DNA from: Verrucomicrobiota bacterium | Lineage (GTDB): Bacteria; Verrucomicrobiota; Verrucomicrobiia; Limisphaerales; CANJXF01 | Length of the DNA: 50,381 nucleotides | Direction: 5' to 3' | Assembly (NCBI GenBank): GCA_038214755.1 | Contig: JBBQRQ010000028.1 | Location: 1 to 50,381, forward strand | Part shown: positions 12,686 through 45,014 of the stretch, piece by piece | Numbering within the stretch: position 1 is the first letter of the stretch | Layout: the number at the start of each line of letters is the position of its first letter | The notes under the pieces: model-generated | The model's input: only the letters and a program-made list of their open reading frames with translations | The model's database searches: none | Told to the model about the DNA's origin: nothing | Translations under genes and position numbers: made by a program

Positions 12686-14689
12686 TCACGGCAAACGGAT
12701 GCGGTAGAATTTGGTGGAGGAAACCGGCTTCGCAAATTCCGCCGTCAGCTTTCCACAGTCCCCACCAAAGGTGACACCGGTGACGGGAGTCCAGATTGGA
12801 TTGGTCAGGGTGTCGGTCTGACTGATTTCGTGAGTGGCATTGGTGGACGGGGTGGTAAAGGTCAACCGGATGGTCGCGCCCAGGTTCTCGACTTTGGAAA
12901 TTTTAAGCAAGTCCAGCGGAGCCGTGTAAATCACGTCGTCGATGTAGAGTTGCGTTGCGTCATTCGTATTGATGGTCGAGTTTCTCGTTTGAACAATTCC
13001 GAAAGCGTTAAAGGAAGTGTTTATCTGCCGCTGGGCCAAAGAGAGCGTGTTGGTAAGGCTGATCGTTCCGCCGGACCCATCATCGATCGTGACGACGAGA
13101 CGGCCCGATGGATCATAAACGTAATTCCAATTGTACACCTGGCTGGTTAGAACAAGGCGAAAAATCGTCGCGCTGTATTGTACTGCTCCACTTCCTAACT
13201 GGAAAACCGCCCGCACTCGGGCGCCGGGAGGGGTGGCGCTTGGTTCGGCAATGGAGATACCAATAAAATTGGTGTTTGCACTGGTGGGTGTGGCCAGAAT
13301 TTGCATATGGCCGATTCTTACTTCATTGTCGAAGGGAAGGACGGGCACAATGATTTTTCCGCTCGCTGAGATGTTGTCGTTCAGAGTCAAAGCGCCGGGG
13401 AAAATATCGGCGTAATAGGCACCATTCGTTTTACGAGTGAACAGGCCGCCCGCCTCGCCGATGTTCGCGCCACCGGCGAGCTGCGAGTTGGTGAAACCGA
13501 AATTAAAACCATTGCTGCGGCTCAAGAATTCCACCCAGCCATCACAAGCAGCCAATGCCGCCGTGTCGAAAGTTTCTAAATTGGTGATGGTCGTCTGTGC
13601 TGCCGCAGTGACGGAAATTTCGACATTGGCATCAACGCAAACCCCGTTGGTATTCGACAGAGTAAAAACGGTGCTGCCCAAGCCGCGCCCCACCACTGTG
13701 AAGTTCATGTTCGTCGTTCCGCCGGTTGCAAAGAGCAAAGTGAGTTTGCCATTCGCGTCCGCACCCGCCGGAAGAGCGACATTGGTATTGAGACTGGTCA
13801 CAACCACAGAGAGGGCATTGGTGAGATTGGCCGTAGTGGGAATCGTGACGCTCACGTTTTGATTGGAGCTTCCGACAGCGGTAATTAATTGGGAAGGAGA
13901 GGGCGTCACACAAGTTATGACCGGGCCAGCGTAATACTGGACGTTATCGATAAAAAAAGTCGAAGTGTTGGTATCAAGCGACGGGGGGATGCCGCCTATG
14001 ACAATACCAAAACTGTCGAGGAACACATTTGTCGTCCTTTGCGCGGCGGTCAGGTTCACCGTGCGCGCGCCAAGTGAGAAGCCCCCGAGGTTATACATCG
14101 TCACCGTAAGTGATCCGTTGCCGGAATTGAGGGTGGGATCATAAACAAAACTAAATCTGCCGGCCGTATTCGTGCCGAGAGCGATGACTTGCGCCGTGGC
14201 AGTCTGGACCGCTGCGCCGTTCGTGAGATAGTAAGCCGCCCTGATGCGGAGTCCGTTGGCTCCAGGCTCCGCCACCGTTAAGCCCAGAGTATTTCTTCGA
14301 TTTGTGGCTCCAATATCAGCGCTATTATAGAAGCCGATCCCGATGGAAGCGCCCACAGGGGTAAAAGTCGGCGAAGCCCATTCTCCATCGGCGCGAAAGG
14401 AATCGCTCAAGGAAAAATTAGTTCCGAGAGAAACCCCATAGGATGAGGTGTTGGTAAAATGAATCATCGTGCCGCCCGCTTCTCCGCCCGGGGAGGACTG
14501 TGCGGTGAAATCTGAATTGGTGAATCCGTAAGTATTTCCGTTAAGGGTATTGCCGATGCCGGCCCATCCCGCAGCCGTTGTGCTCGCAGCAGTATCGAAC
14601 GTCTGCACCGTGGCAGCCTCAGCAAAGCTCGCCGGAAAAACCAATAACGCGGACGTAACCAGAACCTGAGTGATTGAAGGGAATTTCAT
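12686..14689 (-). CDS. Secreted T/S/N/G-rich protein with two copies of an uncharacterised beta-rich domain and a C-terminal Verrucomicrobia-type export domain
   Basis: Signal peptide MKFPSITQVLVTSALLVFPASFAEA; internal duplication (TFDTAA..GW..GFTNS..GEAGG twice); C-terminus 'STKFYRIRLP'. Confidence 0.8.
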   Translation of the reverse strand: MKFPSITQVLVTSALLVFPASFAEAATVQTFDTAASTTAAGWAGIGNTLNGNTYGFTNSDFTAQSSPGGEAGGTMIHFTNTSSYGVSLGTNFSLSDSFRADGEWASPTFTPVGASIGIGFYNSADIGATNRRNTLGLTVAEPGANGLRIRAAYYLTNGAAVQTATAQVIALGTNTAGRFSFVYDPTLNSGNGSLTVTMYNLGGFSLGARTVNLTAAQRTTNVFLDSFGIVIGGIPPSLDTNTSTFFIDNVQYYAGPVITCVTPSPSQLITAVGSSNQNVSVTIPTTANLTNALSVVVTSLNTNVALPAGADANGKLTLLFATGGTTNMNFTVVGRGLGSTVFTLSNTNGVCVDANVEISVTAAAQTTITNLETFDTAALAACDGWVEFLSRSNGFNFGFTNSQLAGGANIGEAGGLFTRKTNGAYYADIFPGALTLNDNISASGKIIVPVLPFDNEVRIGHMQILATPTSANTNFIGISIAEPSATPPGARVRAVFQLGSGAVQYSATIFRLVLTSQVYNWNYVYDPSGRLVVTIDDGSGGTISLTNTLSLAQRQINTSFNAFGIVQTRNSTINTNDATQLYIDDVIYTAPLDLLKISKVENLGATIRLTFTTPSTNATHEISQTDTLTNPIWTPVTGVTFGGDCGKLTAEFAKPVSSTKFYRIRLP

Positions 14690-14754
14690 ATTCGATATGT
14701 GTTTGTTTTTTGAACGAGTGGATTTCACGCGATATTATTCCCCAAGTTTGGGTT

Positions 14755-14793
14755 GGACATAGAAAAACAGATAAAAACCTTGCGAAAAATGCC
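14755..14793 (-). promoter_or_regulatory. Putative AraC-type operator, site 1
   Basis: GGCATTTTTCGCAAGGTTTTTATCTGTTTTTCTATGTCC (gene sense), ending about 66 nt before ATG 14689; matches four other upstream sites. Confidence 0.6.
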
Positions 14794-14841
14794 TCGTGTT
14801 TGGGCGGCGTCGTAGCTCGCGTCCCTGAGAGATTTTCTTTT

Positions 14842-15867
14842 TTATGGACGAGTGCCATTCCGCAAATGCTCTCGAAAACGGCTCGGACAAATCCCGGTTT
14901 GATTTCGGAAAAAATGGCTGAAATAAAACTCGCTGGAAAAATTAAGTTGTGCCGCGACATCTTTGATGGAAAGGCGTTGATCGGCCAGCAGCAGTCGCGC
15001 ATGATCCAGTCGCATTTTCTGAATGTGATGATGAAGAGTTCCCTGGCCGGAATTGCGAAACAAGGTTCGCAACAAAGAATAGCTGACTTTGGCCACCGTC
15101 CCCAATTCCTTCGTCTTCCAGTCTTTAAGGGGATTTGCCGCAATCGCATTCAAAACGCGGGCCATGGGAAGAGGCATCTCTGCGTGGGGTGATACCAAGA
15201 GATCGCGGGACATGAGCAGTTTTCCCAAGAGGTTTGTAATAATGACATGCACCTGCCACTCCCAACCCGAGGGATGCCTTTTAACCAGGCGAAGTAACTC
15301 GGATTGGGTTCGCCGCACGATCTCGAAATCTTTAATCACAAATTCGGATTGATGATTTCCGCCAATTTGCTCGTGCCAGAACTCCAGTCCGGGACCGCCG
15401 AAACGAAAGCCGGCTATCGTCAGGTTCCGGGTCGGCGCGGGGACGTAAGTGCGCGGCTTGCTCATGTCGATCAACCAGAGCCGGCGTCCCGGCTTCAAGG
15501 CGAAACGTCCCGTCTCGTGGCGCAACTCTCCCTCACCAGATCGAACCCAGAACAAATGTGCGCCCGGCTTTTCGAATGGTTCGTGATGGTCGGGGCAATC
15601 CAGTCGTCGTGTGCCGATGGAAAAAACATGCCAGAGCAATCGGCGGGCAATGGGAGAAGGCTCGACAAAGGTTAGTCTGTCCAATGATTTAGAGGCTGTT
15701 GGAAAAGTGGGGCAGGCATCCTGCCTGCCTTGCGGGCTTCCAGCCCTAGAAACTGGGGCAAGATGCCCCGGAGTGGCAGGCTGGAAGCCTGCCCCACTAT
15801 CAGGCAAGCCTGCTTCACCCGTGCCGCTCGCCGACTTTTCCAACCGCCTCTTAGATAATTTGCTCAT
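14842..15867 (-). CDS. AraC family transcriptional regulator carrying an in-frame MITE insertion near its N-terminus
   Basis: C-terminal HTH 'RLDHARLLL...SIKDVAAQLNFSSEFYFSHFFRNQTGICPSRFR'; cupin-like 'HLFWVRSGEGEL'. The start overlaps the stop of the upstream symporter. Confidence 0.9.
   Translation of the reverse strand: MSKLSKRRLEKSASGTGEAGLPDSGAGFQPATPGHLAPVSRAGSPQGRQDACPTFPTASKSLDRLTFVEPSPIARRLLWHVFSIGTRRLDCPDHHEPFEKPGAHLFWVRSGEGELRHETGRFALKPGRRLWLIDMSKPRTYVPAPTRNLTIAGFRFGGPGLEFWHEQIGGNHQSEFVIKDFEIVRRTQSELLRLVKRHPSGWEWQVHVIITNLLGKLLMSRDLLVSPHAEMPLPMARVLNAIAANPLKDWKTKELGTVAKVSYSLLRTLFRNSGQGTLHHHIQKMRLDHARLLLADQRLSIKDVAAQLNFSSEFYFSHFFRNQTGICPSRFREHLRNGTRP
15692..15850. mobile_element. 159-bp MITE-like element with IS5-like terminal inverted repeats enclosing a REP doublet; TTA target duplication
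   Basis: GAGGCTGTTGGAAAAGT (15692-15708) / ACTTTTCCAACCGCCTC (15834-15850), 16 of 17 matching; TTA on both sides (15689-15691 and 15851-15853); internal GTGGGGCAGGC...GCCTGCCCCAC. Confidence 0.75.
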
Positions 15868-17404
15868 GAATATCTTTTCTAGCGACTCCGCCATCGGACT
15901 CGTCTGCGACCGTTGGCAAAGCGCTTTTTCGAGTTATCCAGCTCACCCCATACCCCACGACGAATAGCACAATGTGATTGAAAATGCCGATGAGAAATGG
16001 ATGCCATTTATAATTGTACTCGCCCAAATCCAAAAGGACGCGGTGGATGGCTGGTAATTTTACAGAGGTCAGAGTCGCCCATGCCGTAAAAATAACACAG
16101 GCAATAATTCCTGCGATCGCCCCTTTGGCGGTTGCCTTTTTTGTGAGCGCACCCAAAGCAAATAGCCCGAGCATTCCGGCCGAGGCGATGGAAAAAAGCT
16201 GAACCGCGAATTCGAGGGCTGAACCAATGCCGATCCAGAGCTGCGATAATACAATCGAAAAAATTCCCAAAATAAAAACGGTTGTGCGTCCAACCCATAA
16301 TCGCGCGACGTCGGGGGATTTTGGTTTGATCCGACCATAAAAATCATCCACCACGACCGCGGCCATGCTGTTCAAATCGGAGTCGAGACTCGACATCGCC
16401 GCCGCGAGAAGCGCGGCCACTACCAGGCCGATCAACCCAATCGGGAGTTGAGTTTTTATGAAGTAAGGAACGATGTTGTCCTTCAGTACTGCGACGCTTG
16501 GAGGTAGAGCCGCGCCATCCAGTTGATAAAATGCCCAGAGACACGCACCAAATAAGATGAATAAAAACCAAATGGGCAGACACGCAATGGCTCCAAAAAA
16601 AGCGCTTCGTTTCGCATCTCGATCTGTTTTGGCCAAAAGATATTTTTGAACGATGTGCTGGTCCAATGCGTAACGCTGCACCGCCCACAGCCCCCCGCCG
16701 ATCAGAAAAAACCAAATGTTTTCGTGAACCAAACTGAAATGCCAGTCGCCTAACCCGAATTTGCCGCCTTCCCATGCGGTTTTAAGAACTAAGCCAGGGC
16801 CGCCTGCGGGTTTGAACAGCGCAATACCAAGACAGATAAGTCCTCCGGCAATCAGCAGAATGCCCTGGATGATGTCCGAGTAAACGACGGCGGCGATTCC
16901 TCCGACCAGCGTCATCGTCAAGGTGATGAAGCCAACGATTAGAATGACCCACCAAATTGGATATCCGGTGAGGTACGAAACGGGAACTGCGAGAAAATAA
17001 AGCGTGGCGCTCATATCGACTATCCGACTCACAATAAATGCCGCCGCCCCGTAGGCTCGCGCGGTATAGCTGAAACGCCGCTCCAGATAATCGTAAATGC
17101 TCATGCGGATTGTTTTGCGGTAGAACGCAACGACGTAGCGCGAGATAAAGAGCATCGCGATGGGAAGCAAAAAAAAAGAAGGGAGATTCCACATGTTCCG
17201 GGCAAAAACGTTCCCAGGATGACCGATGAAAGTAGTGCTGCTGATCATCGTCCCGATGATGGCGAAGCCAATCACCCATCCGGGAACATTTCGTCCCGCC
17301 AGAAAATAATCCTCAGTCGTTTTCTGATTTCGGGAAAAATGAAATCCCATTCCGAAAATAACCGCGAAATACACTCCGACGATGGCGGTATCAATGATTC
17401 CCAT
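15851..17404 (-). CDS. Sodium:solute symporter (SSS), similar to sialic-acid/sugar-acid transporters
   Basis: 'EDYFLAGRNVPGWVIG', 'SIYDYLERRF', 'DQHIVQKYL', 'AAAMSSLDSDLNS'; many transmembrane segments. Confidence 0.9.
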   Translation of the reverse strand: MGIIDTAIVGVYFAVIFGMGFHFSRNQKTTEDYFLAGRNVPGWVIGFAIIGTMISSTTFIGHPGNVFARNMWNLPSFFLLPIAMLFISRYVVAFYRKTIRMSIYDYLERRFSYTARAYGAAAFIVSRIVDMSATLYFLAVPVSYLTGYPIWWVILIVGFITLTMTLVGGIAAVVYSDIIQGILLIAGGLICLGIALFKPAGGPGLVLKTAWEGGKFGLGDWHFSLVHENIWFFLIGGGLWAVQRYALDQHIVQKYLLAKTDRDAKRSAFFGAIACLPIWFLFILFGACLWAFYQLDGAALPPSVAVLKDNIVPYFIKTQLPIGLIGLVVAALLAAAMSSLDSDLNSMAAVVVDDFYGRIKPKSPDVARLWVGRTTVFILGIFSIVLSQLWIGIGSALEFAVQLFSIASAGMLGLFALGALTKKATAKGAIAGIIACVIFTAWATLTSVKLPAIHRVLLDLGEYNYKWHPFLIGIFNHIVLFVVGYGVSWITRKSALPTVADESDGGVARKDIHEQII

Positions 17405-17415
17405 GGTGAGAAAAT

Positions 17416-20223
17416 TTAATCAGCAACGGATTTCAGATCGCGAATCAAATTTTTTCCGTTGGCCTCTTCGACCGATTTGACGATGACGAGGTATTGATTA
17501 GCCCCGCCCAGTTGTCCGTTCCATCCGAGCGTGACCGTATCAGTCGGCTTAAATCGCTTCACATAAACGCTCGCCGAACTGGTGGCAGAACTTACTCCAA
17601 TAATTTTTTCATCGGTCTTTTTCCAATCGGCCAGCAAGGTGGGAAGTTTGGCGAGGTCGTTGTGCGCTACATACACATCCGATTCCTGGGCCACGCGAAA
17701 CGTCGCCAGTGGATTTGTTTTATCGTCGCTGCTGTCGTTGGCGGTTTGAATCCATTCCTGGCCGAGTAAAGTTTTCGGGATGGATTTAAATTGATACTTG
17801 CGATCGGTGAACATTTTGTCGCCGACGCGCAGATTCTTTTGCACCAGCCACGACAACACATGGGCAAAATTTCCATCGCGAAAAAGTTTTTCTGAAACGA
17901 CTTTGCCTTGGGGATTCCAAATCGTCGCTTTTCCAACGCACCGGTGGTTGACCCAAGAAGACTCAGATTTTTTTTTCTCGTTCGAATGCCACTGCGTCCA
18001 AACATTCGTGCCGTCCTCGCGATGTTGCCATTGCCAGACGAGTTTGCCTTCGTCCGTCCAATAACTTTCTTCGCCGGTTTTTTTACCATCGCGATAAGTC
18101 ACTTCATGTTGCTTTTGGCCGGCCGGATAAAACGCGGTTTGCTTTCCATTCAGCCAGAAAGTTCCGTCCGCGAAATTTTTCGCGCTCGAACTGATCCGCG
18201 CTTTCCCGTTGGGATAATTTTCCTGCTCAGTTTTTGTTTCTGCTTTGCCACTCGGTTTCGGCAGGGGAACTGCGTCTCCTTCCTGTGAAATCCACGCTTC
18301 GTTAAACTCAAAGTGCAAGCTCGGATGGTTCATACTTGTGATGAGATGAATGCGTCCGTTCGGCGCCTGGCGCATGACGCAATAACCAAGCGTGCCATCG
18401 GAGTGACTCGATGAGGCGTGAGCCGTAATTCCCGGAATTCTCGATTCGTGCGGCAAGGTTTGCGGAATGGATTTGAACTTCCACGTTGTGCCTTCGTCCT
18501 CCGAAATCGCGACATACGAACCCCGTTTCGAGAAACCTTTGGGTTGAACCCCTTTGATGTCTTGATAATCGCCAGCGACCAGCAATCGTCCGCTCGCCAG
18601 GCGAATGATGCACGGACGCTGATTTCCGCCCACCGTCGGGAATGGAGTTTTGGTGGGTGTTCCCCAAGTTTTTCCGCCGTCGCCAGAGAGGACTTGCGGC
18701 ATGAAGCCTTCAATGCCGGTGTTCTTTCCGCCCAGCCCAAGAATGCGTCCGTCTTTCAACAGAACAAAAGTGGTGTGACGCCCAGCCGTCCGACCGCCCG
18801 CGTCCCCCCAGGTTTTTCCCTCGTCGTGGCTGACCCAGAGCATCGAGTCATCTTCCGCACCATCGGCGGCGACATACATCGCGCCTTTCTGGTCGCGAAA
18901 ACCCGTGTTGATCGGTTGCGCGCGAAAATCAATTTTGCCCGTCGTCGGTTTGATGAAACGAACTTTGCTCCAGGTCGCGCCGTTGTCTTTCGATGAAGTC
19001 CAACGCAGGACAACGTCGAGAGTTGTGGCTGGGCCGCCCCAAAATAAATTCAATTGTCCGTGGTCGGTCCAAAGCATCGGCGACGCGTCGTTCATGTCGG
19101 GCAAATCGAAAAGGTAATCGGGCATGTCCCATTCGTCGGCGCCGAAGCGAAGCCGCGTCGCAATGAGCGCGACATCACCAGTGTATTCGTCGTCGGAAGT
19201 GTAATAAACCGCGAACACATCGCCGTTCGGACAAACTTCCACGGCTGGACTGTGATTGTGCGGCAGAAAGGAGGGATGCAGACCCGCGGCGAGCGTGGCT
19301 TCTTTGGTAACGTTCTCGAGCGGGATGGGGAGAATACTTCGACGTTTGAAAAACGGCTGTTTTAGATTCGCACCGAACTGCGCGAAGTTCGTATTTTGTT
19401 TCACGGATTGGGTGACAAATGGCGGAAGATTTTTCGCGGGAGGCGTTTTCACGGGAGGCGCTTGGACGATACGAAACCCAATGGGCATCTCTCCGCTGTA
19501 ATCAGGAACGCAACCGCTGCGATTTGCTGAACGCGAGTAAAAATTCTGAATGAACGGATCGAAATTGGCGGTTCCCGGTTGGCGTCGCGGAGTCATCCCT
19601 CCGCCGCGAATAATGCGAGCGATTCCGGTTCCTGGCCCAACCGGATCGGTTTGTTCTTCCCACGAATAAAGCCCGTGCCAATCCAAACACCATTCCAACG
19701 CTCCGGTGTGCATGTTGCGCAAACCCCACTGGTTCGCCCAGTCCGCTTTCGGCGCGGAATCGCCCGACGCAAAATGCGTCGTGGTTCCGGCACGACAGGC
19801 GTATTCCCATTCCGCTTCCGTCGGCAAACGATAATGTGTTTTCTCTTTTTGGCTGAGCCATTGGCAGAAAGCCACCGCATCATCCCAACTCATTCCACCC
19901 GCGTAAGGCGCAATTTTTTGAACTGTTTTGAAATCCGGACGAAACTGACGGAACTGCTCCTCTGTGATTTCCGTTTCAGACATCAAAAAGTCTTTTGAGA
20001 TTTTTACTTTATGAACCGGACGCTCGTCCCAATCGCCATTCGGAAGGTGGGCCGGCCCGCCGAGTCGCGGCGTTGGAGCTTCATTTCCCATGAGAAAAGA
20101 GCCAGCGAGAATTTTCAGCAAACGCATGCCGAGCGAGTTGGTGTGAAAAGTTTTTTCAGTGATTTGAGCGTTGGCCAATTGGCTTACCGCCAGGAGAACA
20201 GCTATTACAATTTGTTTTTTCAT
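17416..20223 (-). CDS. Secreted multidomain protein: FGE/SUMF1-like domain, BNR (Asp-box) sialidase-like domain, MORN-like repeats and a C-terminal domain
   Basis: 'RLPTEAEWEYACRAGT', 'NQWGLRNMH'; Asp boxes 'SKDNGATW', 'SHDEGKTW', 'SGDGGKTW', 'SEDEGTTW'; 'YPNGKAR..YPAGQKQ..YRDGKKTG'. Confidence 0.85.
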   Translation of the reverse strand: MKKQIVIAVLLAVSQLANAQITEKTFHTNSLGMRLLKILAGSFLMGNEAPTPRLGGPAHLPNGDWDERPVHKVKISKDFLMSETEITEEQFRQFRPDFKTVQKIAPYAGGMSWDDAVAFCQWLSQKEKTHYRLPTEAEWEYACRAGTTTHFASGDSAPKADWANQWGLRNMHTGALEWCLDWHGLYSWEEQTDPVGPGTGIARIIRGGGMTPRRQPGTANFDPFIQNFYSRSANRSGCVPDYSGEMPIGFRIVQAPPVKTPPAKNLPPFVTQSVKQNTNFAQFGANLKQPFFKRRSILPIPLENVTKEATLAAGLHPSFLPHNHSPAVEVCPNGDVFAVYYTSDDEYTGDVALIATRLRFGADEWDMPDYLFDLPDMNDASPMLWTDHGQLNLFWGGPATTLDVVLRWTSSKDNGATWSKVRFIKPTTGKIDFRAQPINTGFRDQKGAMYVAADGAEDDSMLWVSHDEGKTWGDAGGRTAGRHTTFVLLKDGRILGLGGKNTGIEGFMPQVLSGDGGKTWGTPTKTPFPTVGGNQRPCIIRLASGRLLVAGDYQDIKGVQPKGFSKRGSYVAISEDEGTTWKFKSIPQTLPHESRIPGITAHASSSHSDGTLGYCVMRQAPNGRIHLITSMNHPSLHFEFNEAWISQEGDAVPLPKPSGKAETKTEQENYPNGKARISSSAKNFADGTFWLNGKQTAFYPAGQKQHEVTYRDGKKTGEESYWTDEGKLVWQWQHREDGTNVWTQWHSNEKKKSESSWVNHRCVGKATIWNPQGKVVSEKLFRDGNFAHVLSWLVQKNLRVGDKMFTDRKYQFKSIPKTLLGQEWIQTANDSSDDKTNPLATFRVAQESDVYVAHNDLAKLPTLLADWKKTDEKIIGVSSATSSASVYVKRFKPTDTVTLGWNGQLGGANQYLVIVKSVEEANGKNLIRDLKSVAD

Positions 20224-20275
20224 CAGCGTTCTTAAGCAAAATATTTTACAACTGTTTTCATGAGTCCCGAGAACC

Positions 20276-20401: not shown

Positions 20402-20405
20402 CTCT

Positions 20406-21425: not shown

Positions 21426-21465
21426 TGTGTAAGTTGGAAGACCGGAGGGCGCAACAACGGCCGGA

Positions 21466-22218: not shown

Positions 22219-22264
22219 ACTTGGGTAGTTGCGATGAAAATGTTTATCCCTGAACTCGCCAGGA

Positions 22265-35619: not shown

Positions 35620-35648
35620 AATCGCGATTGGCTCGCCAAAATATTATC

Positions 35649-35774: not shown

Positions 35775-35779
35775 TGTCT

Positions 35780-37863: not shown

Positions 37864-38013
37864 CACTGAAATGAAACTACCGAACTGAACTCAGTCTCGC
37901 AACACCTGGCCGACAAAGATATGGAAGGCCAACTATTAAAATCGATTGGTAGAAAAAATATTGTGTCACCAAAAAACAAGTCTTACTCTTCGATTCAATA
38001 AATTCATTGACGA

Positions 38014-38712: not shown

Positions 38713-38747
38713 GAACCCCCGTCGCAATGTCCGACGCGCTTCTTGCT

Positions 38748-38775
38748 AAAGCGGCGACATGTCTCCGCACTCCAA
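38748..38775. repeat. Single REP-like unit AAAGCGGCGACATGTCTCCGCACTCCAA
   Basis: Same family as 35649-35774; lies between convergent genes. Confidence 0.6.
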
Positions 38776-38792
38776 GTCCACCTCACCTTTCT

Positions 38793-41700
38793 TTACGGTG
38801 TTCGTTGGAGCCGATAGGTGCGGCTATTGAAGTTGATCGTTTGCGTGTCTGTGAAAGTAGTTACCCCATTGGTCAATAGGTTGGTCTGGAGCGGAAGCCA
38901 GTTCAATAGGTTGGTCGCGGCTTGGACGATGTAACTCTGACCCGCGCCGCCGGAGATGGTGAACTGGAATGGTCCGTTGCCCAGTCGTTGAGGCGAACTG
39001 AGGAGGAAGGGCTGAACGGTATTCGGGCTGGCCGCAGAGTAAGTGAGTTGGTCAATATACAAAGTGATCGCATCGCCGCTGTTCGCTGCGCCCAATCCGC
39101 CCGTTAGCAAACCATATCCATTGAAACTTGCTCCGGTATTACGTTGGGCTGCGGTTAGGTCTTGAGTCAACGTTCCCAAAGAAACACCTGAACTGTTAAA
39201 CACCTGCACAGTCAGCCGCCCTTGGCCGTTGACTCCATTGGTTGGATTGTAATCCGCCGTGAACTTGTAGCGGCTGTTGCCCGGCGTCAGGTTAATAACG
39301 GCAGAAGGCTGGACAGTTGCGCCGTCACTCAAGGCAAAGGTTGGTCTCGCTCGATAGGTTCCCTGTCCACCGCCAACGGGTTCGGCTATGGTCAAGCCGA
39401 GAACATTCTTCCGTAAAACAGCGCCCCCGTCTATGGTGTTAAAAAATCCAAGCATCACTGCGTTATCGTAGAGCGGATTGGTGCTCGCCGCGGTAATAGC
39501 CAGTTCACCATCGGCATGCAGTGTGTTCGTCAGAGTAAAGGTTGCGCCCAGTGTTGTATCACCATAGAAGGAGACATTGACAGTGCGGGCGAGAACATTC
39601 CCGCCTTCACCTGCCGGCGAACCAAACCCCGTGTTGTCCGAATTGGAAAAGCCAAAATTATTTCCGTTGTTTGTATTGCCCACGCCAGTCCAGCCGTGAG
39701 CCAGCACATCGGAAGCATTATCAAATGGTTCCGTCGCTTGAGTCACTGCCGTCGCGTCATTGTCCGCGATTATTACGGTGGCGCTGCTCGGCGAACCCAC
39801 TGTGTAACCGGCATTGGCAACGAGCGTCAGCACCACGGTCTCGTTCCCTTCGACAAGGCTATCATCTATTGGAGTAACTATGATATTCGTGCTACTAACT
39901 CCAGTAAGCAATGTTATCGAACCCGGAAGATTGGCATAATCCACTCCGTTACCAGCCGTGCCGCTAATCGTATAAGACACGGTCAAGTTGCTGCTCGTGC
40001 TTCCAATCCGGTTCACCGTCAACACGCCGGGCGTGGACGGCTCGGCGGCATTGGGACTGGTGGCGGTGAGAGTTATAGTAGGTAGTGGCAGGGTGTTGAG
40101 AATGGCCTGATACCAAACTTGAGCCATAGACTGGTAACCTGCGGCAGTGGGATGAACGCCGTCCGCCAGATTGCCGACCAACGCGGTGTATTGATCAACA
40201 AGTTTCACAGTGATATTCGAGAATAGATTGGTGGGAATGGCGGACATGATAAAAGTATTATATTGCACGACTTCGTTGGTTATGACATCGCTGACGGCAT
40301 CGCCCGTCCACGCTTTGGTGATGGGTGGAGTCGTAGAGACCAGCACCTCGATCTGAAGTCCCTGACTGGCGGCTCGAACATCAATCTCATGCAACAAGGA
40401 TTGAAGGCAGGCAATGCAGCCTTCGGCTATCCAATCCTGGCCTTCGCCCTGACCATCGTTATTGAGGTCGGTGTTGAAGCTGCCGTGGGCGCTGTCAACT
40501 ACTTGGTGCAAGTGATCATTCACACCGATCAACAAGAGGATGATATTCCGCGTCGTCGCGTTAATAGAGAAGTAGGTGAGCGCCACAGCATTGGTCATCT
40601 CGTCATATAAGCCGCTTCGATTCTGGCCCTGTATGGATACATAGGATCGCCCGTCAATCGTGGCCGGGGTATCGGAGAGCTGCCAACCGCTCTTGCCCCA
40701 GTGGTTCGGGTCCGGGCAAGTGTCACCTGCCTGGGTCTTGGCTCCCACAAAATCGACGGTATAGCCGTTTGTCTGGAGCAAATTGTAGAGGGGAAGGCGG
40801 TAGCCGCCGGGTATGGTTCCCACTGTAATGGAATCGCCCATCGGCATGATTTTCAAGTTCGTAATGAAATCATTGTCCATGAGGGTGATGGTCGCATTGC
40901 TTGGCAAACCAATGCTGTATTCGGCATTGGCCGCGAGTGTGAGCAGCACTGTTTCATTTCCTTCCAACACATTGTCGTCTATCGGACTCACTGTCACTAT
41001 TGCATTGGATGAACCTGCCAAAATGGTCAATGAACCGGTAAGGCTCAAATAGTCCACTCCGTTGCTGGCCGTGCCGGTGATCGTGTAATACACCGTGAGG
41101 TTGCTACTCGTGTTGCCACTGCGGCTAATGGTGAATTGTCCCGGCGTAGATGGTTCGGCGGAATTCGGAATGCTGGCTGTGATCGTGACGATTGGAACAT
41201 CACCGACTAACCGGAACCGATCCATGGTCACAGATTGGTCTGTTCGTCCGTAGTAGTCATCTGAACCAACATGGCCCGAGACATAGATGGTGCCGTCGCT
41301 CGTTTGGATACTCCTGGGATAGTAACGCGATGAGTAACTCGGAACTCCGGTAATGTTTAAAACGTTCCAGGTGGCTCCACCATCATCGGTCCAGTGAATA
41401 CCTGAAGTGGCGATGTGCAAGATAGGACCTTCACGGGTAGCCAACAGTTCTGGATGTCCTGAGTGCGGGAATGGCGCAGGGCCATACTGATCCAATATCC
41501 AGGTGCTGCCTGTTTTGTGGAATCGGCCCTGGTAGCGGACTTGTTGCGATGAGTTGGTGGGATTGTTCCTCCGGAAAACTCCGAGGAAATCGCCACTGGG
41601 TAGTTCCGCGACATCCCATTCGTTCCATGCGGCATAATTGGTCTGAATACCACTCAACATAATGATCTGCGGATTCCAGGTCGCCCCGTCGTTGCTGGAA

Positions 41701-42383
41701 AACATCAGCACCGGTTCACCTAGTAATCTGGTCGCCGGGTTTGGGTTATAACGTTTTACTCCCGTGGCGAGAAGGCGGCCATCGCTCACGCGCCGGACCC
41801 GTCCAACGTAATCTGCAAAGTCACCGATGTAGTTAGTATATTGTGGGGGTCTTGATGGCTCGGGCGGGACTTCGGGAAGTCCCCAAGTCTGTCCCTGATC
41901 CATCGAGCGTTGGAAGTAGATCGTCCTCGGCACGGCATTGGAGGGAAGTTGCGAACCATCCACCGCACGGATAATGCCTCCATTTGTGAGGGCGCAATGC
42001 GAGCCACCCCAGACGGGACGGTCGGAGAAGCTGGAGAATGGATCTTCACCCACCTTGCTCCAGTTAACGCCGCCATTAGTCGAGCGAAGATAGATATTGG
42101 CAAGCTGAAGTCCACTATAGTCGTAGTTGGCATTGGTGCGGTCTACAATCTGTCCCGTTGCCTGATGACACATTGCTATAAGACTGCCATTGGGCATGAC
42201 CCAGGCTCCAACCCAGGAGGTATATCCAGGCGTTTGTGGAGAATGGTAGATGGTCTGCCGCGAATAATTATCAGCAATCCATGTGGCCGCGCGAGCCGAC
42301 GGGGTAGTGACTGCGAACCATCCGGCGCAGAGCGGAAAAAACGTCGTCGCCAGTTGACACGATACTTTCCTAAAGTTCATCAT
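38793..42383 (-). CDS. Secreted multidomain protein: BNR beta-propeller, Calx-beta, SGNH esterase, Calx-beta, uncharacterised domain and C-terminal export domain
   Basis: Asp boxes 'STNGGVNW', 'SMDQGQTW', 'SNDGATW', 'TDDGGATW'; Calx-beta 'GTASNGVDY...PIDDNVLEGNETV' twice; SGNH 'MPMGDSIT...GVND...DGVHP'; C-terminus 'RTYRLQ'. Confidence 0.88.
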   Translation of the reverse strand: MMNFRKVSCQLATTFFPLCAGWFAVTTPSARAATWIADNYSRQTIYHSPQTPGYTSWVGAWVMPNGSLIAMCHQATGQIVDRTNANYDYSGLQLANIYLRSTNGGVNWSKVGEDPFSSFSDRPVWGGSHCALTNGGIIRAVDGSQLPSNAVPRTIYFQRSMDQGQTWGLPEVPPEPSRPPQYTNYIGDFADYVGRVRRVSDGRLLATGVKRYNPNPATRLLGEPVLMFSSNDGATWNPQIIMLSGIQTNYAAWNEWDVAELPSGDFLGVFRRNNPTNSSQQVRYQGRFHKTGSTWILDQYGPAPFPHSGHPELLATREGPILHIATSGIHWTDDGGATWNVLNITGVPSYSSRYYPRSIQTSDGTIYVSGHVGSDDYYGRTDQSVTMDRFRLVGDVPIVTITASIPNSAEPSTPGQFTISRSGNTSSNLTVYYTITGTASNGVDYLSLTGSLTILAGSSNAIVTVSPIDDNVLEGNETVLLTLAANAEYSIGLPSNATITLMDNDFITNLKIMPMGDSITVGTIPGGYRLPLYNLLQTNGYTVDFVGAKTQAGDTCPDPNHWGKSGWQLSDTPATIDGRSYVSIQGQNRSGLYDEMTNAVALTYFSINATTRNIILLLIGVNDHLHQVVDSAHGSFNTDLNNDGQGEGQDWIAEGCIACLQSLLHEIDVRAASQGLQIEVLVSTTPPITKAWTGDAVSDVITNEVVQYNTFIMSAIPTNLFSNITVKLVDQYTALVGNLADGVHPTAAGYQSMAQVWYQAILNTLPLPTITLTATSPNAAEPSTPGVLTVNRIGSTSSNLTVSYTISGTAGNGVDYANLPGSITLLTGVSSTNIIVTPIDDSLVEGNETVVLTLVANAGYTVGSPSSATVIIADNDATAVTQATEPFDNASDVLAHGWTGVGNTNNGNNFGFSNSDNTGFGSPAGEGGNVLARTVNVSFYGDTTLGATFTLTNTLHADGELAITAASTNPLYDNAVMLGFFNTIDGGAVLRKNVLGLTIAEPVGGGQGTYRARPTFALSDGATVQPSAVINLTPGNSRYKFTADYNPTNGVNGQGRLTVQVFNSSGVSLGTLTQDLTAAQRNTGASFNGYGLLTGGLGAANSGDAITLYIDQLTYSAASPNTVQPFLLSSPQRLGNGPFQFTISGGAGQSYIVQAATNLLNWLPLQTNLLTNGVTTFTDTQTINFNSRTYRLQRTP

Positions 42384-42445
42384 AATGTCGGGTTCAACCA
42401 GTTAATTGATTCGCTCTCGGTCTTTCCTTAATCCGACGCCGAACC

Positions 42446-43624
42446 TTATTCTGAATTTAGCCGAAAAGAATCCATGACAATGGATTGATCTATTTTGCCG
42501 TAGGCATTGTCTGACCCGGAATGGCTGACGATGTAAATCCGGCCATCCTTGGCCTGAACACTCACGGGGTAGTAGTGTGATTTGATTGGGCCTTTTCGTT
42601 CCTTCGCCTCGAGGGAGTGCCAGGTCTTTCCAGAATCGGAGGTCCAGTCAATGCCGCTGGTAGCGATATGCAAAACAATTCCTTCACGCGTGGACAGAAC
42701 TTCTGGATGACCGGAATGTTCAAAGGGCGCGGGGCGATACTCGTCCAGAATCCAGCCGTCGCCTTTCTTTCGCAGGAGACCCTGCCAGCGAACTTGTTTG
42801 AATTTGACGCTCTTTGGATCGTTCCTGCGAAAGACGCAAAGGAAATTACCGTCAGGCAACTGTGCGCAATCCCACTCGTTCCATGCATAACCGCCATGCA
42901 TTTCCGGAGAGGGCATCTCGATTTTCTGAGGCTCCCATGTTCTGCCATCGTCCTTTGAAAACATGACCAAGGGATCGCCCATCATTCGTTTCCTGGGACT
43001 TGGATTGGTGCGAATAACACCGGTGGCGATCAGCCAGCCGTTAGTGAGTCGGCGGACTCGGGTGATACAGTCTCCAAAATCACCGAGATAGTTGTTAATA
43101 GGTCTTGAGGGTTCTGGTGGAACCTCCGGCTTTCCCCAGGTTTTTCCCAAATCCATCGAGCGTTGAAAAAAAATTTTCCTTGGCACAGAATTGGAAGGCC
43201 ATTGCGAACCATCCACCGCCCGTATAATTTCTCCATTGGTCAGCGCGCAATGTGAGCCACCCCAGACGGGCCGCTCCGAAGGACCATTAAATATATCCTC
43301 CCCCGTTTTAGTCCAAGTGACGCCGCCATTAGTTGAGTGAAGGTAAATATTTGCCAGAACCAGTCCGCTATAGTCGTAGTCTTTCTCCTTCCGCCCTTCA
43401 ATCGGACCAGTCACTTGTTTGAAGGTCGCCATCAGGCTATCGTCAGGCATCGTCCACAGACCCACCCATGAGGTGTAGCCGGGAGTTTGCGGCGAATGAT
43501 AAATCGTTCGATGAGTGAGTTGTTCAGCGACGAAATGCGTCTCCGATTTTTTCTTCTCTGCGGCATGGCAGAAATACGAAACGAAAACTGCGCCGGCAAA
43601 AATCAGAATGGCTCGGTGTTTCAT
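42446..43624 (-). CDS. Secreted BNR/Asp-box sialidase-like beta-propeller protein
   Basis: Signal peptide; 'STNGGVTW', 'SMDLGKTW', 'SKDDGRTW', 'SDSGKTW'; paralogous to both neighbours. Confidence 0.85.
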   Translation of the reverse strand: MKHRAILIFAGAVFVSYFCHAAEKKKSETHFVAEQLTHRTIYHSPQTPGYTSWVGLWTMPDDSLMATFKQVTGPIEGRKEKDYDYSGLVLANIYLHSTNGGVTWTKTGEDIFNGPSERPVWGGSHCALTNGEIIRAVDGSQWPSNSVPRKIFFQRSMDLGKTWGKPEVPPEPSRPINNYLGDFGDCITRVRRLTNGWLIATGVIRTNPSPRKRMMGDPLVMFSKDDGRTWEPQKIEMPSPEMHGGYAWNEWDCAQLPDGNFLCVFRRNDPKSVKFKQVRWQGLLRKKGDGWILDEYRPAPFEHSGHPEVLSTREGIVLHIATSGIDWTSDSGKTWHSLEAKERKGPIKSHYYPVSVQAKDGRIYIVSHSGSDNAYGKIDQSIVMDSFRLNSE

Positions 43625-43664
43625 AAACAAGTTGAAAGGAAATATATCGGCGACTTTCTCAACC

Positions 43665-43703
43665 GAACATGCAAAAACTGATTGATTGCTTGATAAACGT
43701 GAA
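43665..43703 (-). promoter_or_regulatory. Putative AraC-type operator, site 4
   Basis: TTCACGTTTATCAAGCAATCAATCAGTTTTTGCATGTTC, ending about 41 nt before ATG 43624. Confidence 0.55.
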
Positions 43704-43740
43704 CACTTTCCGCAAGAAATCTGCTAGTTCTTCCATGTCC
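43702..43740 (+). promoter_or_regulatory. Putative AraC-type operator, site 5
   Basis: AACACTTTCCGCAAGAAATCTGCTAGTTCTTCCATGTCC, ending about 60 nt before ATG 43800. Confidence 0.55.
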
Positions 43741-43799
43741 TGCGTTTGAAAATTGTGGCATTGATGCAACCTCATTTACAACGCAGCCAATTAAAAATC

Positions 43800-45014
43800 A
43801 TGAATTCCAAATTAGCGAAGGCAACGACTTATACCGCACTGGGCCTCCTTCCTTTCGTCGCCATTTGCCGAGGAGATGATTCGACTAAACAAAAAGAATA
43901 TTTCGTAGAGAACTTCGCGCGCAAAACGATTTATCACTCGCCACAGACGCCCGGCTACACTTGCTGGCTCGGCACATGGATCATGCCGAACAAGGATTTG
44001 ATGATTACGTTCACCCAGAACACGGGCGAAATTGATCCGGCACACCGCGCTTCCGATGAATTGAGAAAACAATTTTATCCGCACCTCGAAAATCCGATGC
44101 GCGACGCGACGACATTGAATAAGAGCAATTTGTTTTTGCGTTCAAGCGACAAAGGCGCGACGTGGAAAGAACTCGGCGGATTCCGATTTGAAGGGCCGTT
44201 CGCCTACTGTTCGCCGGGGGGCCAAGACATAGTATTGAAAGACGGAACAATTTTGAAAGGCGTCTTCGGTTACTTCCAATTGAGGACATCAGGAGCGCCT
44301 CCGAGCGCATATCTAATTCGTTCCTCCGACGAGGGAAAAACCTGGAGCAAACCTCAAGTGCTGGGAGATCCTTCGAAGGACAACATGAGGTTGACGCGAA
44401 TTCGCCGATTGCGGGACGGGCGGTTGATTGGGACTGGCGGTCGCGCGCGCACCCCGAGCACATCTCAAATCAAACAAATTTGGGACCTTTGGGAACCGTT
44501 GCTTTTAGTTTCCGATGACGACGGGAAAACGTGGGCCGGGCCGATTGAAGTATTGAATGCCGAGCAACGCCAAGGTTGGAAGTGCGAAGAATACGACACG
44601 GCGGAGCTACCAAACGGCGACCTCGTTTGTGTCTTTCGCAGATTGGATCCGGCGGATGGAAAAACTCAAGTGCGTTGGCAAGGGCTTCTCAAGAAGGACG
44701 GGAAAAACTGGAAGATAACAAAACTGAAACCTTCGGTATTACCGCACTCGGGCCACCCCGAATTATTGATGACGAAGAAAGGTGTGGTTTTGCACATCGC
44801 GACCAGCGGAATGCACTGGACTGAAGACGGCGAAACTTGGACGCCGGTGGAGTTCCCCACTTTGAAAGAGGGCTACCATTCTCGCTATTACCCAAAAAGC
44901 CTTCAGACTGACGACGGCACAATTTATGTCTTCGGTCACGTCGGCTCGGACAATGATTACAAAGCCAGAGACCAATCGATTGCCATGGAGACATTCAAGT
45001 TGGTAAAAAAATAA
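43800..45014 (+). CDS. Secreted BNR/Asp-box sialidase-like beta-propeller protein
   Basis: 'SSDKGATW', 'SSDEGKTW', 'SDDDGKTW', 'TEDGETW'; shares 'TIYHSPQTPGYT' and 'HSGHPE' with its neighbours. Confidence 0.85.
   Translation: MNSKLAKATTYTALGLLPFVAICRGDDSTKQKEYFVENFARKTIYHSPQTPGYTCWLGTWIMPNKDLMITFTQNTGEIDPAHRASDELRKQFYPHLENPMRDATTLNKSNLFLRSSDKGATWKELGGFRFEGPFAYCSPGGQDIVLKDGTILKGVFGYFQLRTSGAPPSAYLIRSSDEGKTWSKPQVLGDPSKDNMRLTRIRRLRDGRLIGTGGRARTPSTSQIKQIWDLWEPLLLVSDDDGKTWAGPIEVLNAEQRQGWKCEEYDTAELPNGDLVCVFRRLDPADGKTQVRWQGLLKKDGKNWKITKLKPSVLPHSGHPELLMTKKGVVLHIATSGMHWTEDGETWTPVEFPTLKEGYHSRYYPKSLQTDDGTIYVFGHVGSDNDYKARDQSIAMETFKLVKK

Follow-up and report, generated by a model that had tools for sequence, protein, structure and literature searches.

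A gene set conserved across phyla in a Verrucomicrobiota genome, and its proposed role in breakdown of the acid sugar Dha

We think it somewhat likely that a conserved operon in this Verrucomicrobiota genome (G000) imports Dha, a rare acid sugar of plants and green algae, and splits it to pyruvate, DHAP, and CO2. If so, this would be a breakdown route for Dha. We found no description of a catabolic pathway for Dha in the literature that we searched; an earlier note on this DNA had called the system undescribed, and within that literature the word stands. Beyond the genus, g07-g09 and g13-g17 (14842-28587 of the window, which is the whole stretch of 50,381 nucleotides that was analysed) are the only genes that recur together. 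To judge from their sequences, these ~14 kb hold a rearranged version of an operon that is found across phyla. The gene content, the operon packing, the conservation across phyla, the adjacency to GH143, and the folds were observed directly.

The earlier note had treated the 32 kb from 12686 to 45014 as one system, in which an ulosonic-acid-like sugar is de-esterified outside the cell by SGNH domains and imported; a pyruvate aldolase then cleaves it, and the fragment enters a DUF1537/PdxA tetronate route. Comparative genomics supports the import, the aldolase, and the tetronate route; it does not support the single system or the de-esterification.

Core genes and the proposed pathway

We scanned 29 open reading frames of the window with Pfam and 24 with NCBIfam, and placed the start codons of several of them downstream of the start of the longest frame. 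Every element that had been listed before was found again, including four BNR/sialidase-like propellers (g09, g25, g26, and g27), two SGNH domains (g24 and one inside g25), two SSS transporters (g08 and g13), and two DHDPS/NAL-family proteins (g10 and g22). The scans added an AraC-family regulator (g07), an M28 peptidase (g19), an N-methyltryptophan-oxidase-like FAD enzyme (g23), and a PALP fragment (g12). The earlier note was also right that the window has no NanK, NanE, or NagA: none of the 29 reading frames matched ROK/NanK, NanE, AGE, or NagA-type families in Pfam. For comparison, we used the 80 public loci that are closest to the iron-type alcohol dehydrogenase g15 (the best 80 of 554 confirmed relatives, 54-93% identical); counts among these 80 loci are conditional on Fe-ADH similarity, and many of the source genomes are related to one another.

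The plus-strand part of the core (g13-g17) has intergenic gaps of just 0-14 nt. Its first gene is the second SSS symporter (g13, 22751-24286; Pfam SSF), which is followed after 7 nt by a class II pyruvate aldolase of the HpcH/HpaI family (g14, 24294-25103; Pfam HpcH_HpaI, 92 bits). The best match of g14 in the PDB is YfaU (2vws, E = 7e-27, ~98 bits), and H46, R71, E150, and D176 of g14 align with H49, R74, E153, and D179 of YfaU, which we take to be active-site positions. In other loci, the aldolase slot is filled by a class I enzyme of the DHDPS type; it is filled by class II HpcH in G000, in a contig of a same-genus MAG that maintains the order SSS2-HpcH-FeADH (L051), and in locus L112, where HpcH likewise adjoins Fe-ADH. 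No DHDPS of the module type was found in G000 (the best candidate is at 33%). We predict that g14 is a Dha aldolase that replaces the usual class I enzyme of the operon.

The next gene, g15 (25118-26257, plus strand; Pfam Fe-ADH and ADH_Fe_C), has lactaldehyde reductase among its NCBIfam matches and is predicted to reduce D-threuronate to D-threonate. It is followed by a PdxA-family dehydrogenase (g16, 26258-27274, plus strand; Pfam PdxA, E = 1e-107), which scores higher against 6e85, "D-threonate 4-phosphate dehydrogenase" (275 bits), than against the E. coli-type PdxA 1ps7 (224 bits). The NCBIfam score of g16 for D-threonate-4-phosphate dehydrogenase is below the equivalog cut-off (301.4 vs. 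583). We predict that g16 is a decarboxylating 4-phospho-D-threonate dehydrogenase of the PdxA2 type. A second pdxA lies next to surA on contig C10 of this genome and is likely the housekeeping copy. The ATG of the DUF1537 four-carbon acid-sugar kinase (g17, 27271-28587, plus strand; Pfam SBD_N and NBD_C) overlaps the stop codon of g16 (ATGA). The best NCBIfam match of g17 is D-threonate kinase, again below the equivalog cut-off (122.9 vs. 450), and this is also the best match for the kinases of related loci, so g17 is a predicted D-threonate kinase. It carries a 42-residue in-frame REP-like insert (roughly 27466-27595) and retains all 55 of the 55 columns that are invariant among 7 family members. 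Given the tight packing, the active-site positions of g14, and the retained columns of g17, the operon looks intact.

The other core genes are on the minus strand. The AraC-family protein g07 (14842-15894; Pfam HTH_18/HTH_AraC) has relatives of at least 40% identity (mostly 60-77%) that adjoin the operon in 18 of the 80 loci. REP-like units lie within its start region (15709-15729 and 15775-15795); a REP-like palindromic element encodes the N-terminal ~70 residues, and the protein may therefore begin further downstream. The SSS-family sodium:solute symporter g08 (15851-17404; above the cut-offs of both Pfam SSF and TIGR00813) is the predicted importer of the acid sugar, and an SSS homologue (37-75% identity) is present in 55 of the 80 loci. 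Finally, g09 (17416-20223) has a signal peptide, an FGE-sulfatase-like domain, BNR_2, and MORN repeats (Pfam). An AlphaFold model of residues 230-800 (pLDDT 83) shows a six-bladed GH33-like propeller, for which Foldseek ranks GH33 sialidases and KDNases highest (1eur, TM 0.72); hhalign relates g09 to a canonical BNR_2 protein with a probability of 96%. A g09-like gene is found in 25 of the 80 loci. We predict that g09 is an exo-hydrolase that releases an ulosonic or ulosaric acid.

In the pathway that we propose, secreted g09 would likely act on an RG-II-like plant glycan or a glycan of green algae and free Dha (or a related ulosonic acid) from it, and an SSS symporter (g08 or g13) would import the sugar. 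The aldolase g14 would cut between C3 and C4 to give pyruvate and the four-carbon aldehydo-acid D-threuronate, and g15 would reduce the aldehyde with NAD(P)H. The product would be D-threonate because we read the D-lyxo configuration as C5 left and C6 right, which is the D-threo form. The kinase g17 would then form 4-phospho-D-threonate, and g16 would oxidise and decarboxylate it to DHAP and CO2. The oxidation by g16 would return the reducing equivalent spent by g15, and therefore the route would be redox-neutral. The gene set is likely controlled by g07.

Conservation across phyla and the link to Dha

The core genes co-occur in other genomes: an aldolase, PdxA, and DUF1537 lie beside Fe-ADH in 58 of the 80 loci, and in 47 of the 58 loci with full flanks. 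By record title, the carriers are Verrucomicrobiota, Phycisphaerae, Prevotella, Bacteroides, Ignavibacteriales, Melioribacter, Calditrichaceae, Anaerolineales, Oscillospiraceae, and Ca. Aquilonibacter. In a genome from the same order and another family (G025), the genes form a compact operon between housekeeping genes (SSS, BNR_2, SSS, FeADH, DHDPS, PdxA, and DUF1537). Relatives of the operon also carry a gene of the DUF386 anomerase family. Among 150 genomes sampled from the phylum, just 2 besides G000 have an orthologue of the Fe-ADH, and 1 of those 2 has PF24067.

Dha can be proposed as the specific substrate because 8 of the 80 loci have, by tblastn, a gene for a GH143-type Dha hydrolase (a BT_1020-like propeller) no more than 10 kb from the operon. 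Pfam (PF24067) confirms 7 of the 8; in the other, L112, the tblastn match is probably to the GH142-like half. The N-terminus of BT1020 is the sole Dha hydrolase named in the available parts of PMC6811678 and PMC13501991. In L102, a protein of BT1020-like GH143 plus GH142 type is directly upstream of the operon; L113 has the order GH43, apiosidase-like, GH142-like, LacI, operon, SSS, BT1020-like; and L120 and L082 have the order BT1020-like, DUF386, SSS, operon. Further neighbours of RG-II type are GH127, GH29, and RGL11 (L084), GH78 and GH33 (L112), and a pectate lyase (L062). In 72 of the 80 loci, no GH143 lies in the 21-kb neighbourhood. G000 itself (97% completeness) has no match to PF24067/GH143, neither GH28 nor DUF386 was found in it, and it has only one apiosidase-like gene; it does not resemble an RG-II degrader.

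The same core could instead act on another 2-keto-3-deoxy (ulosonic) acid, such as Kdo, Kdn, sialic acid, or a sulfated ulosonic acid, and the tetronate enzymes would then process a downstream fragment by unforeseen chemistry. The GH33 fold of g09, which resembles sialidases and KDNases, would agree with this, as would the absence of GH143 from G000 and the additional NAL-like lyase g10. The C-terminus of BT1013 also belongs to GH33. The available part of PMC13501991 names it as a Kdo hydrolase. Furthermore, 18 of the 80 loci contain sulfatases and g09 has a fused FGE-like domain, neither of which is accounted for by Dha chemistry. We nevertheless consider another ulosonic acid unlikely. Aldol cleavage of Kdo yields a pentose, and that of sialic acid or Kdn a hexose, and neither is a known type of substrate for DUF1537 or PdxA. 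The window lacks the NanK, NanE, and NagA families, and the recurring glycosidase neighbour besides g09 is GH143, which is Dha-specific in the available parts of PMC6811678 and PMC13501991.

Genes outside the core and other readings

The lyase g10 (20406-21425, minus strand; Pfam DHDPS) has 5c54, "DHDPS/N-acetylneuraminate lyase," as its best PDB match. It is 22-32% identical to the module aldolase, as compared to 38-78% between the module aldolase and two probes (among the matches listed), and is not orthologous to the aldolase normally found in the operon. It could be an additional lyase, and its membership in the operon is uncertain. The prepilin-type protein g11 (21466-22218, minus strand; Pfam N_methyl; H-X9-DG motif at residues 195-206) is an occasional neighbour of the operon: homologues adjoin it in L056, L091, L097, and L108, and L082 also has an N_methyl reading frame. 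The last gene of the minus-strand row, g06 (12686-14689), encodes a secreted protein of 667 residues with no match in Pfam or NCBIfam. It has two ~240-residue repeats that are shared with the C-terminus of g25 (39% and 33% identity to residues 866-1117, blastp).

Downstream of the core, Pfam and NCBIfam identify g18 as a PVC-type CxxCH/DUF7133 protein (28592-31663) and g19 as an M28 peptidase (the pair spans 28592-32991, plus strand). These are followed by a block (33701-37866) of Gfo/Idh/MocA (g20, 33701-34726), a xylose-isomerase-like TIM barrel that had been listed as an epimerase (g21, 34729-35619), a divergent DHDPS (g22 or DHDPS2, 35774-36700, plus strand), and the FAD enzyme g23. Next are an SGNH esterase (g24, 38014-38712, plus strand), a giant protein with BNR, Calx-beta, and SGNH domains (g25, 38793-42383, minus strand), and two paralogous sialidase-fold propellers (g26, 42446-43624, minus strand; g27, 43800-45014, plus strand), all by Pfam. 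The model of g26 is a six-bladed propeller (pLDDT 90.5) whose nearest relatives are Dfer_1899 and sialidases.

A single system over the whole span would mean that the core pathway is also supplied by the SGNH proteins, the three extra propellers, Gfo, the TIM barrel, DHDPS2, and the CxxCH protein. The genes are contiguous, g17-g18-g19 are packed without gaps, the gene order is kept in G007 of the same genus, and a fused sulfatase-SGNH protein is encoded two genes upstream of the operon in L120. But L120 is the only one of the 80 loci with a g24-like SGNH near the operon, and extracellular de-esterification by these domains is likewise not supported. At E ≤ 1e-10, Gfo has weak matches in 2 of the 80 loci (L098 and L123), and g18, g19, g21, DHDPS2, g23, and the paralogous propellers have none. 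Synteny of g18 and g19 is limited to G007 and G008, the order of g20-g23 is kept within the genus only, and such synteny is no proof of a common function. Even within the genus, the interval from g22 to a g28-like gene in G008 does not contain g23-g27, and a search of 150 other genomes sampled from the phylum gave no match to g26 at E ≤ 1e-20. A single system is thus improbable; g18-g27 appear to be neighbours that are syntenic within the genus only, and the 80-locus comparison does not support their membership in the pathway.

It is about as doubtful that PdxA and DUF1537 use free D-threonate or D-erythronate from the environment, with the aldolase and Fe-ADH belonging to an unrelated deoxy-sugar route (for example, a 2-keto-3-deoxy-rhamnonate aldolase and a lactaldehyde reductase). 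The YfaU match of g14, a 2-keto-3-deoxy-sugar aldolase, and the lactaldehyde reductase match of g15 fit this idea, and PdxA-DUF1537 pairs occur without the remaining operon genes in G051, G039, and G049. However, the four genes remain adjacent across phyla in most of the loci, the aldolase slot persists despite the switch of enzyme class, and the operon lacks a dehydratase or dehydrogenase for rhamnonate or fuconate.

Apionate routes reportedly use PdxA-family and DUF1537 enzymes (Carter and colleagues, 2018). Enzyme names for these routes are given in the available part of bioRxiv 10.64898/2026.03.13.711244. A pathway of similar logic for a branched acid sugar of RG-II (aceric acid or apionate, for example) would fit this parallel, GH127 in L084, and the 7 of the 80 loci that have FGGY kinase or split transketolase genes close to the operon. 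It is very improbable, however: no RuBisCO-like protein is present in the window or the scanned loci, and both aldolase types are pyruvate aldolases that need a 4-hydroxy-2-oxo acid, which these branched sugars do not provide.

Comparison with known systems

Like the class II aldolases YfaU and HpaI, which act on 2-keto-3-deoxy sugar acids, g14 retains the His, Arg, Glu, and Asp positions; the match is just ~98 bits, and the context differs from the rhamnonate and hydroxyphenylacetate pathways. Sialic acid (Nan) clusters contain a sialidase, an SSS-type transporter, the NanA lyase, and the NanQ/YhcH anomerase. The proposed Dha operon similarly has a GH33-fold hydrolase, an SSS symporter, a pyruvate lyase for a 2-keto-3-deoxy acid sugar, and, in relatives, a DUF386 anomerase-family gene. 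In contrast to Nan clusters, it has no NanK, NanE, or NagA, its aldolase in G000 is class II, and the aldehyde product would go to a reductase, a kinase, and a decarboxylating dehydrogenase.

Ndeh and colleagues (2017) are said to have described RG-II degradation by B. thetaiotaomicron, with BT1020 as a GH143 Dha hydrolase joined to GH142. As in that system, BT1020-like propellers (PF24067) and other RG-II CAZyme families are near the operon in related loci. B. thetaiotaomicron releases Dha, and the available parts of PMC6811678 and PMC13501991 give no catabolic route for it. Unlike B. thetaiotaomicron, G000 has no PF24067 match; conversely, the B. thetaiotaomicron genome in our control panel, which has BT1020, gave no DUF1537 match.

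D-threonate catabolism by DtnK and PdxA2 was reportedly established by Zhang and colleagues (PNAS, 2016). The available part of PMC10971088 describes it as a DUF1537 kinase (DtnK) plus PdxA2. Here too, a PdxA-family dehydrogenase and a DUF1537 kinase are adjacent and translationally coupled, their best family matches are D-threonate-4-phosphate dehydrogenase and D-threonate kinase, and the predicted product is DHAP. In contrast to DtnK and PdxA2, the scores are below the equivalog cut-offs, and the pair lies among genes for a pyruvate aldolase, Fe-ADH, SSS transporters, and a sialidase-fold protein. In this arrangement, D-threonate would arise as an intermediate from a seven-carbon sugar diacid, rather than serve as the growth substrate.

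The recurring operon and its surroundings

The window is an entire contig of a 5.1-Mb assembly (completeness 97%). Pfam and NCBIfam scans of its long ORFs recovered every domain that the earlier note had named, including the H-X9-DG motif of the prepilin-like protein (g11). After refining the starts of several ORFs, we found that five genes on the forward strand (g13-g17), which encode an SSS transporter, an HpcH-family aldolase, an iron-containing alcohol dehydrogenase (Fe-ADH), a PdxA-family dehydrogenase, and a DUF1537 kinase, are separated by just 0-14 nt, and that the start of the kinase gene overlaps the stop of the PdxA gene (ATGA). A second row of genes lies on the opposite strand (g11-g10-g09-g08-g07-g06) and includes a DHDPS/NAL-family protein (g10), a BNR_2 propeller (g09), another SSS transporter (g08), and an AraC-type regulator (g07). 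Between these divergent operons, at 22318-22662 (-), is a 114-residue ORF in which just the first ~50 residues of a PALP / cysteine-synthase-like domain are present, probably the remnant of a gene.

The DUF1537 kinase was found in 12 of 61 genomes (this one included), so its distribution is patchy. We compared all of the window's proteins with the fetched neighbourhoods of the carriers. Two genomes of the same genus, G007 and G008, keep the order g17-g18-g19-g20-g21-g22, which runs from the kinase through CxxCH, M28, Gfo, and TIM-barrel proteins to a second DHDPS-family gene (DHDPS2), and in G007 the order continues through g23-g25. In G008 (locus L050, 8944-11085, versus 36700-45974 in the window), DHDPS2 is followed by a HEAT protein similar to g28 and then by another gene of the g09 type (58% identity), and the block of MTOX, SGNH, and propeller genes is absent there. 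Because g22 of G008 runs straight into the g28-like gene, close relatives here differ by an indel, the g23-g27 block. In G025, which comes from a different family within the order, a compact operon encodes an SSS transporter, a BNR_2 protein (38% identical to g09), another SSS transporter (41% identical to g08), Fe-ADH (55%), a DHDPS-family aldolase, PdxA (57%), and the DUF1537 kinase (34%). The operon is flanked by GroEL/DnaK and by an unrelated reductase.

An alignment scan for Fe-ADH, with one genome per species, confirmed 554 relatives. We examined the loci of the best 80 of these 554 (54-93% identical) and scored their features by tblastn with fixed thresholds for coverage and identity. 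In these counts, which are conditional on Fe-ADH and come from genomes many of which are kin, PdxA was found at 72 of 80 loci, a conserved class I (DHDPS-type) aldolase at 68, the DUF1537 kinase at 64, an SSS transporter at 55, a g09-like protein at 25, a g07-like AraC protein at 18, and HpcH at 3. The four-gene core (Fe-ADH, aldolase, PdxA, and DUF1537) was present at 58/80 loci, or at 47/58 among loci with full flanks, and many of the misses are contig ends. The usual order is g09, SSS, FeADH, aldolase, PdxA, DUF1537, AraC, which in our genome is split across the two divergent rows. Carriers include soil and freshwater Verrucomicrobiota and Planctomycetota as well as rumen and gut Prevotella and Bacteroides.

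Judging from these sequence comparisons, the recurring unit is g07-g09 together with g13-g17 (14842-28587), and g11 is an occasional neighbour. The earlier note had proposed one system spanning 12686-45014, which our data do not bear out: the remaining genes are syntenic only within the genus and are nearly absent from the 80 loci. Specifically, g18, g19, g21-g23, and g25-g27 had no match at E <= 1e-10 in the 80 loci (the best of the 554 Fe-ADH relatives), g20 (Gfo) had weak matches in two, and g24 (SGNH) had a match in one. The SGNH domains, three paralogous propellers, Gfo, TIM-barrel, DHDPS2, MTOX, CxxCH, and M28 proteins are tied to the core by proximity only.

Two genes contain a REP-like element, made up of paired palindromes, that is translated as part of the reading frame: g17 (at 27466-27595) and g07 (at 15709-15795). 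In the kinase it forms a 42-residue loop insert, and g17 keeps every column that is invariant in the family alignment; in the AraC protein it is part of the N-terminus. Elsewhere in the genome, at least 9 places match the translated copies. Because the copy in g07 occupies the very position that the FeADH-DUF1537 block has in other genomes, the element may mark the rearrangement.

The surroundings of the core have features of their own. Upstream, at 1-12668, the genes are typical of PVC bacteria: they encode a PSCyt1/PSCyt2/PSD1 protein and the DUF1501 protein that partners it, a ceramidase-like protein, and a 1620-residue protein with FG-GAP, DUF7133, HEAT, and cytochrome c domains that is related to g18. 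g06 (12686-14689) contains two copies of a ~240-residue domain without a known family, and the same domain recurs within 38793-39790 as residues 866-1117 of g25, a 1196-residue protein with propeller, Calx-beta, and SGNH domains. g23 (36697-37866, -) scores 489 bits as an N-methyl-L-tryptophan oxidase (NCBIfam cut-off 257); an oxidase of this amino-acid type has no evident function among genes for sugars. The three sialidase-fold propellers encoded at 41100-45014 (g26, g27, and the N-terminal part of g25) are paralogues with 42-58% identity; they have an N-terminal motif in common, as well as a stretch, H-S-G-H-P, that is invariant. This propeller family has 373 database relatives, of which the few with a source name are called "sialidase family protein" or "exo-alpha-sialidase." The model of g26 (pLDDT 90.5) is a six-bladed propeller closest to sialidases and to Dfer_1899, its nearest solved structure, and g26 has no homologue at E <= 1e-20 in 150 further genomes sampled from the phylum.

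Aldolase, kinase, dehydrogenase, and propeller

The class I aldolase of the operon is missing from our genome, where its best match anywhere is 33% identical. g10 comes from a separate DHDPS subfamily, sharing 22-32% identity with the usual aldolase, and its best PDB match is 5c54. Instead, the HpcH protein g14 precedes Fe-ADH, as it does in a contig from the same genus (L051) and, independently, at L112. g14 matches PF03328 with 92.2 bits (cut-off 25), and its H46, R71, E150, and D176 align with H49, R74, E153, and D179 of YfaU, which we take to be metal-binding or catalytic residues. With class I enzymes in this slot at some loci and class II enzymes at others, the operon clearly exemplifies non-orthologous displacement. 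Since both types are pyruvate aldolases, we expect the substrate to be a 2-keto-3-deoxy (4-hydroxy-2-oxo) acid.

g17 has both DUF1537 domains (SBD_N and NBD_C) and adjoins the PdxA-family g16. Excerpts of PMC10971088 describe DUF1537 kinases and PdxA2 as acting on four-carbon acid sugars, and the names of the NCBIfam models agree. The best NCBIfam family for g17 is D-threonate kinase (NF047819), at 122.9 bits, which is below the equivalog cut-off of 450; the operon's kinases from L125 and L080 score 105 and 120.6 bits. Similarly, g16 scores 301.4 bits against D-threonate 4-phosphate dehydrogenase (NF002891), under the equivalog cut-off of 583, and passes the generic pdxA model TIGR00557 (377.8 bits, cut-off 290.35). 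g16 scores higher against 6e85 (275 bits) than against the PdxA1 structure 1ps7 (224 bits), although the order of PDB matches is the same for the housekeeping PdxA and the score margins alone differ. g16 is the genome's second PdxA, and the copy beside surA is likely to be the housekeeping one.

g09 has a signal peptide and matches BNR_2 with 59.9 bits (cut-off 31.4). The core of its model (pLDDT 83) is a six-bladed beta-propeller of the GH33 type, and its top Foldseek matches are GH33 enzymes (sialidases and KDNases). Aligning g09 to a canonical BNR_2 protein with hhalign gave a probability of 96%. In an alignment of 25 members of the g09 family, several Arg, Asp, and Glu positions do not vary, nor does Tyr385, which aligns with a Tyr of the canonical protein; the N-terminal Arg region lies outside that pairwise alignment, and when g09 or the profile of its family was aligned by sequence to solved sialidases, the alignments were too weak for catalytic residues to be read. 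BT1020 was not among the sequence matches. The genome has one apiosidase-like gene and no match to GH28 or DUF386. The releasing enzyme of this genome, if there is one, is likely to be g09.

A possible route for Dha breakdown

One sugar that fits all of these constraints is Dha, a seven-carbon diacid, because it would provide a 2-keto-3-deoxy acid for the aldolase, an aldehyde for Fe-ADH, and a four-carbon acid sugar for DUF1537/PdxA2. We set down this idea before examining the operon neighbourhoods that bear on it. The pyruvate aldolase would cleave Dha to pyruvate and a four-carbon aldehydo-acid, which, from the D-lyxo descriptor of Dha, would be D-threuronate. This would be reduced to D-threonate, and the position of Fe-ADH between the aldolase and the tetronate enzymes fits an aldehyde reduction. 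D-threonate would then be phosphorylated and oxidatively decarboxylated to DHAP and CO2. With reductase and dehydrogenase balancing each other's cofactor, the route would be redox-neutral and yield pyruvate and DHAP.

Dha is a rare sugar of rhamnogalacturonan-II (RG-II) and also of green-algal scales and thecae, according to excerpts of PMC10762512, and the N-terminus of BT1020 is described in parts of PMC6811678 and PMC13501991 as a Dha hydrolase (GH143). A BT_1020-like propeller was found at 8/80 loci, as compared to the ~0.5% expected for a single-copy gene if a 21-kb window were placed at random in a 4-Mb genome. At seven of these loci, Pfam confirmed the N-terminal propeller (PF24067) beside the operon. 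At L102 (Prevotellaceae), a 1391-residue BT1020-like protein is directly upstream; L113 (Nibricoccus) has GH43, apiosidase-like, DUF6298, GH142-like, and LacI genes, the operon, SSS, and a BT1020-like gene; and L120 and L082 (Verrucomicrobia subdivision 3) have BT1020-like, DUF386, and SSS genes followed by the operon. The others are L116 (Bacteroidetes), L118 (Anaerolineales), and L074 (Fodinibius). The eighth, L112, is a tblastn match only, probably to the GH142-like half. Further neighbours of the operon with a link to pectin are GH127, GH29, and an RGL11 lyase (L084), GH78 with a strong GH33-type BNR_2 protein (L112), and a pectate lyase (L062). DUF386 genes, which were found at 5/80 loci, reach the cut-off for the YhcH/YjgK/YiaL subfamily, with N-acetylneuraminate anomerase among the matches.

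We tentatively propose that this operon family is the missing Dha pathway, with D-threonate as its intermediate, and that our genus uses the class II HpcH in place of the class I aldolase and a GH33-fold/FGE-like fusion, as a second, undescribed Dha-releasing hydrolase, in place of GH143. We judge this to be a real possibility that falls a little short of probable. Against it, GH143 is absent from 72/80 neighbourhoods and from our genome, B. thetaiotaomicron has GH143 without DUF1537, g16 and g17 do not reach the NCBIfam equivalog cut-offs, and Dha does not account for the frequent sulfatases or for the FGE-like domain of g09. In a sample of 150 genomes from the phylum, two besides ours have the Fe-ADH orthologue, five have PF24067 (four above the cut-off), and one has both, which is too few for statistics. 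Enzymes that set Dha free have been described, but in the literature, where most subscription journals were outside our coverage, we found no paper on Dha catabolism or on a link from RG-II to PdxA/DUF1537.

Sulfatase genes were found at 18/80 loci, and lie just upstream of Fe-ADH at L061, L065, L069, L080, L116, L118 (four sulfatases), L119, and other loci; the g09-like protein also comes in long forms that include an FGE-sulfatase-like domain. These features hint at a sulfated natural substrate (glycan or sugar) in the lineages concerned.

FGGY or transketolase genes were found at 7/80 loci: an FGGY kinase is near the operon at L062 (14092-18791), L058, L064, L070, L073, L081, and L100, as is a split transketolase at six of the seven. 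L062 also has a fucose-isomerase-like gene. We presume that these may represent a route of the apiose type, which would be in keeping with RG-II as the context.

We rejected several other substrates. 3-Deoxy-heptulosonates would need an aldehyde oxidase rather than Fe-ADH, while 5-keto-4-deoxy-glucarate and 4-deoxy-5-hexosulose uronates would give three-carbon fragments. Kdo, Neu5Ac, and Kdn have the wrong carbon count (cleavage would give a pentose from Kdo and hexoses from the other two), and aceric acid and apionate are not substrates of pyruvate aldolases.

As a route for Dha, the operon offers a concrete four-enzyme hypothesis. If it is correct, then D-threonate is an intermediate in the degradation of plant and algal cell walls, and the DtnK/PdxA2 pair gains a physiological context.

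Comparison with known systems

The operon differs from the Nan cluster for sialic acids: as the earlier note had remarked, the window lacks NanK, NanE, and NagA (0/29 ORFs matched the NanK (ROK), NanE, AGE, or NagA-type families in Pfam). It differs from apionate pathways (ApnO, OiaK, and a RuBisCO-like protein) in lacking the latter, as Pfam identified no RuBisCO-like decarboxylase/transcarboxylase in the window or in the scanned loci. Our genome also differs from systems with the GH143 type of Dha hydrolase (the N-terminal propeller of BT1020), as PF24067 matched none of the 29 ORFs of the window and nothing in the whole genome, while a control matched in B. thetaiotaomicron. From the DtnK/PdxA2 pathway for D-threonate the operon differs in its scores, which are below the equivalog cut-offs, and it resembles that pathway in its two-domain DUF1537 kinase adjoining a PdxA-family dehydrogenase.
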